Of a stretch of DNA of 64,000 bases, positions 3,971-5,510 are shown piece by piece. The notes under the pieces are model-generated. The model made no database searches and was not told the origin of the DNA. It saw only the letters and a program-made list of their open reading frames with translations. How positions within the stretch are numbered: the stretch's first letter is position 1; the number at the start of each line of letters is the position of its first letter. This DNA comes from Ignavibacteriales bacterium (GTDB lineage: Bacteria > Bacteroidota > Ignavibacteria > UBA10030): the NCBI GenBank assembly GCA_026390585.1, contig JAPLFP010000355.1, positions 12,779-76,778 of the forward strand, given 5' to 3'. The translations under genes and the position numbers were made by a program.

Positions 3971-4504
3971 ATGAAAGGAATTTTGACGGTATTGTTGACT
4001 TGCGCGCTTGTTGTGGGCGCTGCCGCTCAGCACGATATGCAGAAGATGACGAATGGCCCTGCCAAAGCCGTCGCCGTTGTCTATCCTGCAAAAGACAAGA
4101 CAGTGAAGGGTATCATTACCTTCACGCAGATGGAGAATGGTGTTAAGGTTGTTGCTCACCTCGAGGGTTTAACTCCGGGCAAGCATGGGTTCCATGTGCA
4201 TGAGTTCGGCGATTGCAGTGCCCCGGATGCGACCAGCGCGGGCGGCCATTTCAATCCTACACAGATGACACACGGCGCTCCTACCGATGCCATGCATCAC
4301 TCCGGCGACCTTGGAAACATTGTCGCTGACGACAAAGGAGTGGCGGATCTCGAGTGGCTCGATCCCATGATGCAGCTTTCCGGACCCCAGTCAATCATTG
4401 GCCGTGCGGTAATTGTACACGCTAAAGAGGATGATCTGAAGACTCAGCCTACAGGCAATGCTGGAGCGAGAGAGGCGTGTGGAGTAATCGGAGTAGCGAA
4501 ATAG
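3971..4504 (+). CDS. sodC: periplasmic Cu/Zn superoxide dismutase
   Basis: signal peptide plus [20 protein letters not shown], and ACGVIG motifs of SodC. Confidence 0.85.
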   Translation: [177 protein letters not shown]

Positions 4505-4535
4505 GATCTGTCGGAATTTCATCAGACACAACAAG

Positions 4536-4566
4536 GCCCGGAGAAATCTGGGCTTTTGCTTTTTGT
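4536..4566 (+). terminator. sodC rho-independent terminator
   Basis: aaggcccgg agaaatc tgggcttttgcttttt hairpin plus T-run directly after the sodC stop. Confidence 0.6.
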
Positions 4567-4909
4567 GCGCGCACCACAGCGCTTCACGATCAACTTTTTC
4601 TGCAAAGCGTTCGCGCTTGATACCGCGGAAGATGACCTTGATATTGTCATCGTCAAAAGCCAGCGACCTCCCCTTTGTCCCCTCCTTGCGATGGAAGCAG
4701 TCTGGATGGTGTGTCCCGACACTCAACTCTCAGCGTAGGATTGATCTTCCACCTCCCCTTAATGAGGCTGTCTCAAAAGTCGAGTTCGTAGACATCTTGT
4801 CAGTACTGGCGTTGCTGAATCGCGGATTGTGATTTCAATTCGCGATCGGATTTTCAACACCTGAACAAATGTCACGGTAAAAATAACTTTTTAGACAGCC
4901 TCACATGGG

Positions 4910-5335
4910 GTGGTCAAGCGACAGCGATTTACGATGACCCTGCACTTCAACACGATCCAGCAAAAGAATCGGCGGCGCTTTCTTCGGAGTCATCTCCCCA
5001 AAGCCGAGGCCGTTCTTTGGATGCATCTCTCTCGCCGCCAAATGCTGGGATACAAGTTCCGCCGACAGTACAGCGTTGATCAGTACATCATAGATTTCTA
5101 CTGCCCAGAACTGAAGCTCGCCATTGAGGTAGACGGTGAATGTCACTTCACTGCACCAGCAAGAGAATACGACCGTAATCGTCAAGATTTCATCGAATCT
5201 TTTGGAATCAGATTCCTTAGGGTGACAAACGCAGATGTCCTTGACAATCTTCATGGTTTACTGGATAAGATAGCAGCAACAATCGGGGAAATCCAAAAGG
5301 CTAAAGCCTCAGTCCAGCCATCTCGACCGGCTTAG
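4910..5335 (+). CDS. DUF559 domain protein (Vsr-like / restriction-endonuclease-fold)
   Basis: AEAVLWMHLSRRQMLGYKFRRQYSVDQYIIDFYCPELKLAIEVDGECH...RFLRVTNADV matches the DUF559 signature; GTG at 4910 or ATG at 4934. Confidence 0.75.
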   Translation: MVKRQRFTMTLHFNTIQQKNRRRFLRSHLPKAEAVLWMHLSRRQMLGYKFRRQYSVDQYIIDFYCPELKLAIEVDGECHFTAPAREYDRNRQDFIESFGIRFLRVTNADVLDNLHGLLDKIAATIGEIQKAKASVQPSRPA

Positions 5336-5337
5336 AA

Positions 5338-5510
5338 TCAATCATTGGCGGTGTGGTCATTGTGCATGCGAAGATGGATGATCTGAAGACCCAGCCTGCC
5401 GATAACGCGGGAGCAAGAGAGGCGTGCGGGTTATTGGGGTGGCAAAATAATCGGACTGGTGCACAAGACAAATAAAAGAAGGCCCGGAACACTCCGGGCC
5501 TTTTGCGTTT
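5338..5510 (+). pseudogene. diverged duplicate of the sodC 3' end (encodes [35 protein letters not shown]) plus duplicate terminator
   Basis: ~80% nucleotide identity to 4391-4565, including the ggcccgg..ccgggcc terminator hairpin; no start codon. Confidence 0.65.

Follow-up and report, generated by a model that had tools for sequence, protein, structure and literature searches.

A DUF559 nuclease gene between duplicated sodC ends in an Ignavibacteriales genome, a probable scar of recombination between sibling-lineage alleles

Restriction-modification (RM) genes reportedly enter chromosomes by insertion with long target duplication, a process that Nobusato and colleagues are said to have described in 2000, and a free-standing homing endonuclease gene accompanied by a replacement gene end is said to occur at atp6 of Allomyces (Paquin and colleagues, 1994). 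Here, we describe a 64,000-nt stretch of an Ignavibacteriales genome (assembly GCA_026390585.1, contig JAPLFP010000355.1, positions 12,779 to 76,778; hereafter the window), in which the 3′ end of sodC, encoding Cu/Zn superoxide dismutase, and its terminator stand on both sides of a solitary gene for a DUF559 nuclease. The RM insertions are flanked by 46-423-bp repeats, are found mostly in naturally competent species, and arise by a mechanism that is unknown (Furuta, Abe & Kobayashi 2010, PMC2853133). Orphaned 3′ gene ends and homology-facilitated illegitimate recombination (HFIR) have been described at the effector-immunity loci of type VI secretion systems (T6SS) and at rhs loci (Kirchberger et al. 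2017, PMC5361080; for HFIR, de Vries & Wackernagel 2002 and Prudhomme et al. 2002 as cited in PMC5361080). With regard to the enzyme, I-Bth0305I is a homing endonuclease with the Vsr fold (PMC3239194), Vsr, DUF559 and 3R3P have been grouped together (PMC3424549), and the only functional work on DUF559 that we found concerns Caulobacter VsrA, which it treats as a Vsr-like enzyme of repair or of DNA damage (PMC12907096). Repetitive extragenic palindromic (REP) elements with their RAYT transposases, as well as BoxC, provide a further comparison (PMC2267715, PMC3116915).

Our analysis leads us to reread what appears to be a target-site duplication as a dated recombination scar. At a probability of about 0.6, the second copy of the sodC end (copy 2) is the orphaned 3′ end of another sodC allele that was functional until recently, and the window would consist of the left part of one form of the locus (form A) and the right part of another (form B), with their sodC ends overlapping by 173 nt.

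The sodC tail repeat and its second copy

Self-comparison and blastn agreed with the original prediction, made from the letters of the window, that the sodC tail and its hairpin terminator recur at 5338-5510 at about 80% identity; both tail peptides that it quoted were correct, and a nuclease gene is indeed bracketed by the duplicated end of the gene upstream. The direct repeat 4391-4491/5338-5438 is 78% identical and the terminator parts 4523-4557/5469-5503 are 74% identical, while gapped blastn of 4391-4563 against 5338-5510 aligned 178 columns at 73.6% identity (E 3.6e-24). The repeat measures 173 nt, of which the 114-nt coding part is 78.8% identical between copies, and the copies are spaced 947 nt apart. 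Two candidate readings of the overlapping frames were discarded: the minus-strand open reading frame (ORF) at 4391-4726 had no Pfam match and its tblastn matches were mostly antisense sodC and the conserved non-coding region, and a read-through fusion of DUF559 with copy 2 is prevented by differing reading frames and an intervening TAG.

Copy 2 is a pseudogene carrying a 1-nt deletion between 5429 and 5430 and five unique amino-acid replacements. Once the deletion is corrected, it encodes all 37 residues followed by an in-register stop (TAA, 5448-5450; TAG in sodC). All five replacements lie upstream of the GVIGVAK end and were found nowhere else among the window sodC and L001-L008 (L numbers denote the loci collected here), in which the same positions are invariant or variable in just one or two sequences; the final eight codons, GVIGVAK and the stop, differ from those of sodC by synonymous changes only. 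By the Nei-Gojobori method, the two copies show 17 synonymous and 6 non-synonymous differences (proportion of synonymous differences, pS, 0.63; of non-synonymous differences, pN, 0.07), compared with a pS of 0.56 and a pN of 0 between the orthologous sodC genes of the window and L001 (94% amino acid identity) and a pS of 0.58 between copy 2 and L001. If copy 2 had been formed in situ and had drifted while copy 1 stayed constrained, non-synonymous divergence should reach about half of the synonymous divergence, corresponding to 26-37 non-synonymous differences where 6 were observed (P 1.5e-7, conservative; 6e-14, corrected). This substitution pattern rules out duplication on the spot with subsequent decay of copy 2, and the older event proposed as one cause of the lower identity fails by the same count. 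A transposon-type target-site duplication, in which the 173 nt would have been identical at birth and have decayed neutrally, was likewise rejected on the 17 synonymous versus 6 non-synonymous differences.

Since the pS values of 0.58-0.63 resemble that of the orthologues, copy 2 is about as distant from the resident sodC as the gene of a sibling species, and most of its divergence probably accrued while it was part of a functional sodC, in a lineage roughly as remote as L001. Neutral decay of copy 2 amounts to about 0.07 per site against a dS of about 1 between the window and L001, which indicates that its inactivation is recent. The other cause proposed for the lower identity, gene conversion from a lost second sodC, points the right way: another functional sodC, not slow decay, is the apparent origin, but not as a tandem paralogue, as none was present in about 25 syntenic relatives.

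Scans for sodC in genome contigs and metagenome contigs yielded 160 loci, about 25 of which are syntenic, with a DUF1015 gene, sodC, and then a gene for an S9 peptidase on the opposite strand. These relatives exhibit alternative forms: form A (sodC, terminator, promoter region, palindrome, DUF559, terminator, S9 peptidase) and form E (sodC, terminator, S9), to which form B (sodC, terminator, catalase, S9) is added below. The DUF559 gene lies between sodC and S9 in L001, L004/L088, L006, L007, L081, L086, L087, L089 and L093, and likewise downstream of sodC in L161/L162, which were reached through a DUF559 homologue (at least 10 distinct relatives, counting L161). It is absent from L002/L082, L091, L003, L008, L084 and L085; the sodC-S9 gap of L002/L082 is just 92 nt, and in L085 the palindrome and the promoter region remain. 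By sequence, the DUF559 proteins fall into two groups that broadly mirror the sodC groups, the first comprising the window, L001 and L081 (72-83% identity) and the second the remainder (77-93%), with 62-72% between groups. Because the gene is present in at least 10 relatives in two groups tracking sodC, DUF559 is an old resident of the sodC locus that has been lost and reshuffled repeatedly, and not a newcomer. Each of the 160 loci gave a single sodC hit and no second sodC was found in the roughly 25 syntenic relatives, so that the objection which the original prediction had raised against itself, namely that the second copy descends from an ancestral tandem sodC, is not borne out in them. The only other copy of a sodC tail among the relatives, in L081, also lies alongside DUF559. 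In L092, which has the most similar DUF1015 (91.5%), the contig ends at 3218 in sodC codon 142, the left edge of the window repeat, possibly because the assembly broke at this duplication.

The right flank of the window points to a different form of the locus. The original prediction missed the catalase gene beside copy 2 as part of this history. A catalase was found at the sodC locus in none of the 160 loci, and the closest relatives of the window catalase (P0002, 95% amino acid identity) are on three ENA contigs that lack DUF559 (ERZ1426824, ERZ1426835 and ERZ1426843). There, 2-Hacid_dh, DUF1015 (413 aa) and sodC (177 aa) are followed after 84 nt by the convergent catalase and, on the catalase strand, by a long gene. 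Upstream of sodC, the genes of the window match theirs, and 90 nt separate its copy 2 stop from the catalase stop. The window catalase itself was 100% identical to a protein (P0001) of an Ignavibacteriales metagenome-assembled genome; exact-sequence look-ups of SodC and of the DUF559 product, read from either start codon, returned no match. Terminator 2 and its 3′ flank belong to a spacer type that L002 also has and that L001 carries with its second terminator, behind DUF559. Behind terminator 1 comes the conserved promoter region, an order shared with L001, L081, L083 and L085. Judged from this gene order, copy 2, terminator 2 and the catalase gene represent the normal arrangement of a DUF559-less form, and sodC, terminator 1 and DUF559 that of the form with the nuclease gene. 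As a separate observation, the catalase gene was seemingly inserted into an ancestral terminator-S9 spacer, with 5503-5540 and 6978-7038 resembling the single spacer of L002 (tacagcacggcg). The coordinates of these features and of related elements are collected in Table 1.

Table 1. Features of the sodC locus and related elements (window positions, unless a locus number or accession is given)
Feature	Position	Strand	Evidence or remark
DUF1015 gene, upstream flank of sodC	2625..3866		
sodC, Cu/Zn superoxide dismutase, intact, 177 aa	3971..4504	+	Pfam Sod_Cu, E 3.7e-51
Repeat copy 1: functional sodC codons 141-177, stop and terminator 1	4391..4563	+	hairpin 4533-4556, terminator-like site
Conserved non-coding region; predicted sigma-70-like promoter TTGATA-17-GATATT (4617-4645) facing DUF559	4566..4660	+	promoter scan
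Degenerate nested palindrome copy, ACCTCCCC-TTTGT-CCCCTCCTT, 3′ arm lost	4666..4713	+	folds no better than shuffles, z +2.1
Second nested palindrome, outer stem ACCTCCCC (4751-4758) / GGGGTGGT (4907-4914)	4751..4914	+	-70.7 kcal/mol, z -6.1
Inverted repeat, 18-nt arms	4763-4780 / 4886-4903		17/18 complementary
DUF559 / Vsr-like PD-(D/E)XK endonuclease gene, intact, 133 aa from ATG	4934..5335	+	
Putative illegitimate joint, DUF559 3′ region end / sodC-allele codon 141	5336..5337		
Repeat copy 2, coding part: orphan sodC codons 141-177 and stop	5338..5450	+	
Terminator 2 and 90-nt spacer up to catalase stop	5451..5540	+	hairpin 5479-5502
Catalase gene, convergent with sodC	5541..6977	-	Pfam Catalase, E 4.8e-195
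S9 peptidase gene, conserved right flank	7039..9984	-	Pfam Peptidase_S9, synteny
Promoter-bearing regions of relatives	L001:1384-1488; L081:1020-1115; L085:963-1060		kept in L085, nuclease gene gone
sodC tail duplication of L081	L081:901-1023 and 1570-1693		
Palindrome sites	L163:8135-8215, 9923-10000; L164:4955-5033; L168:4940-5000; L081:1115-1178; L014:9780-9850		
E. coli ycjD repeats	K-12 NC_000913.3 1351040-1351406 (L176); L174:1020-1300		L176 lies between fabI and ycjD

Proposed history and rival readings

The hybrid most likely arose by one recombination between A-type and B-type DNA of sibling lineages, which is also the simplest account. One side would have been joined via homology, and the other through an illegitimate joint at 5336/5337, leading from behind the DUF559 3′ region into sodC codon 141. 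The route would then be HFIR, and the outcome could be described as C-terminal displacement or as insertion with long target duplication; the pattern of C-terminal displacement is present in that an intact gene is followed by cargo and then by an orphan 3′ fragment that stems from an allele and retains a stop of its own. Since L081 and L163 have this architecture and no catalase, we lean toward the block sodC end, terminator 1, promoter, palindrome and DUF559 as the incoming piece, which would have displaced the resident sodC tail downstream. The mechanism of the recombination, its direction and any role of the nuclease are what we infer beyond the repeat, the pseudogene state, the substitution pattern, the allelic forms, the lack of a second sodC in relatives and the independent recurrences; that the nuclease promoted the event, for example by breaking empty alleles, would be pure inference.

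The architecture of an orphan gene end beyond a nuclease gene recurs. L081, whose sodC is 92% identical to that of the window, repeats 112 nt of the sodC tail from about codon 158, together with the terminator, after DUF559 with 1 mismatch; its joint is unlike that of the window, and its downstream genes match the window at 18.9 kb, not S9. In L001, only the terminator is doubled. Past the DUF559 stop, the window, L001 and L081 share homology over the first 17-30 nt, and each then joins sodC-derived sequence elsewhere. A 70-nt stretch of the unrelated contig L163 (8052-8121) duplicates the 5′ end of a DUF2130 gene at 80% identity and is separated from that gene by the first palindrome-DUF559 unit, upstream of which it lies. 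The same contig (7600-10400) has two DUF559 genes (66% amino acid identity) flanking the DUF2130 gene, with a complete palindrome before each. The parallel drawn by the original prediction with an RM cassette at 59.6-61.6 kb of the window also holds: a 63-nt direct repeat (59629-59691/61551-61613, 89%) at the end of a major facilitator superfamily (MFS) transporter gene (58286-61613 with the cassette) encloses genes for a XhoI-family endonuclease (59736-60590) and an N4/N6 methylase (60587-61531), so that R and M homologues are both in the insert (59736-61531). The second MFS-end copy has kept its frame and stop (PRGKGRH-stop versus PRGRKGH-stop) and looks like the gene end of another allele. 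The codon patterns of the 70-nt repeat of L163 and of the 63-nt RM repeat are too short to inform.

Recombination between lineages is evident in the adjoining S9 gene. The 5′ 1.2 kb of the window gene cluster with L001/L085 (87%), and L002 is at 82%; the 3′ 850 nt cluster with L002 (88%), and L001/L085 (90% mutually) are at an outgroup distance of 77-78%. This change of affinity along the gene indicates that inter-lineage recombination occurs at this locus. The direction of the event, which we sought from the mosaic, is not fixed by it, and ranking the relatives by identity to the sodC head, to copy 1 and to copy 2 did not discriminate either.

Several points weigh against the history that we favor. 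The codon test comprises 37 codons only. Copy 1, the decay-corrected copy 2 and L001 are approximately equidistant, and these distances do not settle the direction of the event. At the joint, only CCGG is shared, 11 nt upstream. The form B contigs are known from gene tables, and the sodC of the catalase contigs (P0145) was rejected as the direct source of copy 2 on account of its 80% amino acid identity to the window protein and its tail (SVIG..VIIH..GIAK). The S9 mosaic appears to be explained more simply by replacement in L001/L085 than in the window. Lastly, the near-identical repeat of L081 fits an in-situ mechanism equally well.

The alternative that survives best, although we consider it doubtful, keeps the hybrid and reverses its direction. 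An A-type genome would have acquired codon 141 to the stop of a foreign sodC (sodC′), the terminator and the catalase from a B-type donor; the end of the donor fragment would have formed an illegitimate joint behind DUF559, with recombination close to or within S9 on the right, making the catalase the cargo and DUF559 a bystander. The sodC head (87% nucleotide identity) and the 5′ part of S9 (87%) of the window do group with A-type L001 and L085, DUF559 is the long resident here and the catalase the rare gene, and an illegitimate joint would be natural at the end of a donor fragment. However, L081 and L163 show an orphan gene end beyond DUF559 without a catalase, no break in the window S9 requires import, and the catalase-S9 spacing is 61 nt in the window as against 207 and 453 nt in the B-type ENA contigs.

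Less probable still, in our estimate, is a long target duplication formed in situ when a palindrome-DUF559 unit was inserted at the sodC terminator by a mechanism of its own, for example through widely staggered nicks or a circular intermediate, and copied 173 nt of the target. Ordinary homologous recombination would later have replaced the functional sodC with the allele of a sibling lineage, giving the largely synonymous divergence. The 112-nt repeat of L081 with its single mismatch speaks for such insertions, as do the long, highly identical direct repeats around DUF559 in L004/L088 (171 nt, 95%), L093 (167-184 nt, 93-96%), L006 and L086. The repeats of the window, L081, L001 and L089 all contain the terminator hairpin, those of the window and L081 ending just past it, and the mosaic nature of the locus makes allelic replacement plausible. 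Nevertheless, this reading invokes two events where one suffices, and it leaves unexplained why copy 2, the terminator and the 90 nt resemble the DUF559-less sodC-catalase arrangement. The flanking repeats of the second DUF559 group are built of palindromic modules that also form tandem arrays (L086, L166 and L171); they may thus have an origin other than target duplication. Furthermore, a flanking target repeat is missing at most unrelated DUF559 loci, with 1 of 8 gene copies in unrelated metagenomic loci having one.

A remnant of an ancestral tandem sodC paralogue, with its 5′ part deleted or overwritten by DUF559, is improbable. It would account for the purifying selection that acted on copy 2 during most of its history, but no second sodC or tail occurs in the roughly 25 syntenic relatives save the near-identical copy of L081, the distance of copy 2 (pS 0.58-0.63) is that of an orthologue and not deeper, and terminator 2 with its flank matches the single terminator of L002 and the second terminator of L001. 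An assembly chimera of A-type and B-type strain reads is conceivable in a metagenome-assembled genome with related populations that differ in locus form, but is very improbable, as the switch would be expected inside shared sequence while the joint has no shared k-mer, the frameshift and five unique replacements of copy 2 are unlike the sodC of a live strain, and the independent assemblies L081 and L163 have the same architecture.

The DUF559 gene and its palindromes

The identity of the gene between the copies as DUF559/Vsr-like, as originally assigned, was confirmed by profile PF04480 (98.9 bits versus a cut-off of 20.6; E 2e-28; 105 of 109 profile positions covered) and by PDB entry 3HRL, the nearest solved relative (E 4.6e-17, residues 21-122), with IDFYCPELKLAIEVDGECH of the product aligned to VDFMCVTPKLIVEADGGQH of 3HRL. 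The product also matched PF18741 (43.9 bits versus a cut-off of 38.2). The ORF is open from GTG 4910, and homologues begin at ATG 4934 (MTLHFN), the likely start. The core motif xDFxC...hxhExDGxxH was kept in 16 of 16 aligned homologues, with single conservative substitutions of D by I in L164 and of C by N in L089. The ratio of non-synonymous to synonymous substitution rates (dN/dS), about 0.09 against L001 and 0.13 against L081, shows that the gene is maintained by purifying selection; its C-terminus extends 12 codons beyond those of L001 and L081. A 5-methylcytosine (m5C) methylase motif was not found in the 64-kb window by regular expression, which is a weak test. The predicted promoter is conserved as TTGAAA-17-GATATT in L001, L081 and L085, and since it lies upstream of the palindrome, the palindrome would fall in the 5′ untranslated region (UTR) of DUF559.

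The palindrome has the consensus ACCWCCCC, 4-6 nt, CCCCTCC(TT), loop, (AA)GGAGGGG, 3-25 nt, GGGGWGGT, 13-25 nt, ATG, and it folds into an outer stem that encloses a CCCCUCC/GGAGGGG hairpin. A second hairpin in L164, in the first L163 site (L163a) and in L014 differs in sequence each time with its pairing preserved. The palindrome is immediately 5′ of the DUF559 start codon in L081, L163 (twice), L164 and L168, lies further upstream or downstream in L004, L006, L086 and L093, and in L166 occurs downstream only, as a tandem array; solo palindromes were present in L014, L016 and L085. In 1.81 Mb of fetched DNA, 29 of the 33 inner hairpins were within 700 nt of a DUF559 gene, a zone making up 2% of the sequence, although the copies are partly non-independent. 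Rfam returned no relevant match for window 3800-5700 or for six element-carrying loci. Tandem arrays of palindrome units directly downstream of DUF559 were observed in three unrelated lineages (L086:1628-1981, L166:5357-5728 and L171:1549-2096), with periods of 118, 101 and 148 nt, respectively. Given its Shine-Dalgarno (SD)-like and anti-SD-like runs, in which AGGAGG pairs with CCUCC, the palindrome could regulate from the 5′ UTR, serve as a target of the nuclease or represent a REP-like element.

The 18-bp inverted repeat that had been noticed upstream of DUF559 is real (2 matches versus 0.04 expected in shuffles), with slightly offset coordinates, but it does not mark the boundary of a DUF559 unit, as it lies inside the conserved palindrome (L001, L161 and L007). 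In the second palindrome of the window, it replaces the usual inner hairpin. The corresponding element precedes DUF559 in L001 and L161 and follows it in L007, and is in each case framed by ACCWCCCC and GGGGWGGT. From these positions, the inverted repeat appears to be a variant of, or an insertion within, the DUF559-associated palindrome.

Distant DUF559 homologues (33-45% identity) in annotated genomes have the same palindrome architecture in lineage-specific sequence. On a Pseudanabaena plasmid, GCCCCCTA..CCCCCAATTCTGGGGG..TAGGGGGC occurs on both sides of the DUF559 gene, which is flanked by 40-nt perfect inverted repeats (L169:983-1022/1569-1608); six elements were within 8 kb of the gene (L173:21878-29650) and none in the other 42 kb examined. 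Picosynechococcus has an element of the Pseudanabaena type. In Deinococcus, flanking inverted repeats of 35 nt (80%) and 23 nt (96%) give the appearance of a gene inside a palindrome (L172:1126-1181/1532-1608), and in Neisseria gonorrhoeae, the 3HRL homologue has direct repeats of about 80 nt on both sides. The element of Photobacterium, tried as a solo insertion with a 39-nt target duplication, proved to be a tandem array of 148-nt units.

In E. coli, the DUF559 gene ycjD lies between sapF and fabI and is followed by three palindromic repeat copies, e.g., GGGGAGAGGGTTAGGGTGAGGGG, of a repeat found in a median of 16 and a maximum of 27 places per genome (5,426 genomes). This repeat is probably BoxC, which was reportedly first described beside envM (fabI). 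To our knowledge, this dispersed repeat, probably BoxC, has been unexplained since the 1990s. BoxC is a 56-bp family with about 32 copies (PMC2267715), and the eefRABCD operon is an allelic alternative at the ycjD site (PMC12817139). The literature searched yielded no published link of DUF559/YcjD to these repeats or to BoxC.

A tentative reading, which we regard as rather unlikely, is that DUF559 proteins are the cognate nucleases of widespread, undescribed nested C-run/G-run palindromes, together forming a selfish module that would spread among allelic sites and leave long gene-end duplications such as that at sodC. Equally tentatively, the E. coli counterpart would be the dispersed repeat beside ycjD, probably BoxC, and the unit a PD-(D/E)XK analogue of REP/RAYT or of mobile RM units. 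If DUF559 and BoxC were functionally linked, both questions would become testable in E. coli K-12 via ycjD. The palindrome-DUF559 association, seen in Ignavibacteria/Bacteroidota-type contigs, Cyanobacteria, Deinococcus, Photobacterium, Neisseria and E. coli, is the part of our findings that could prove to be new biology.

Comparison with known systems

DUF559 proteins are very common, yet hardly any function has been assigned to the family. Our protein shares its fold and Pfam family with Vsr and VsrA, and housekeeping repair is the default annotation; however, a repair role leaves the palindromes, the flanking repeats and the presence/absence polymorphism unexplained. REP/RAYT systems resemble the locus in that a single-copy nuclease gene is flanked by short structured palindromes that also occur without the gene, but DUF559 is a Vsr-like PD-(D/E)XK protein, not a Y1 transposase, and, unlike REP elements, the repeats of the Ignavibacteria-type loci and of the Pseudanabaena plasmid cluster near the gene instead of being genome-wide. 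The order of gene body, new end, endonuclease ORF and old end, as well as the presence/absence polymorphism at one site, is shared with homing genes. Regular homing is nonetheless disfavored, as the DUF559 tree broadly follows the host and the joints differ among the window, L081 and L001; in contrast to homing endonucleases, cleavage of the empty allele by DUF559 is only hypothetical here.

C-terminal displacement offers a closer likeness, in which DNA that enters by way of homology in a conserved gene supplies a new 3′ end and downstream cargo, and the old 3′ end and the sequence behind it are shifted downstream, the former as an orphan. In contrast to rhs and T6SS genes, sodC is no polymorphic toxin, the two tails encode nearly the same peptide so that displacement would be a by-product, and HFIR is the presumed route. 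Our data suggest that sodC and catalase, both genes of oxidative stress, and a small nuclease gene have been shuffled between sibling lineages as alternative forms of the locus.

As in the long target duplications of RM genes, a nuclease unit without transposase or integrase is enclosed by direct repeats of tens to hundreds of bp that are single-copy in insert-less genomes and often overlap the 3′ end of a neighbor. The window repeat exceeds the 30 bp required of such flanking repeats around an insert shorter than 20 kb, it is single-copy in relatives that lack the insert (L002/L082 and L091; by gene table, the P0002 contigs), and DUF559 is the sole Pfam-positive ORF between the copies, with no mobility gene. 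R and M homologues are not both in the insert, which has DUF559 and no methylase, in contrast to the RM cassette of the window (59.7-61.5 kb, 63-nt repeat), an example of insertion with long target duplication. Also unlike RM insertions, the solitary DUF559 gene stands between repeat copies from two alleles, next to a conserved palindrome, and as an old resident. Insertion with long target duplication, known for RM genes, would thereby be extended to a solitary Vsr-like nuclease.

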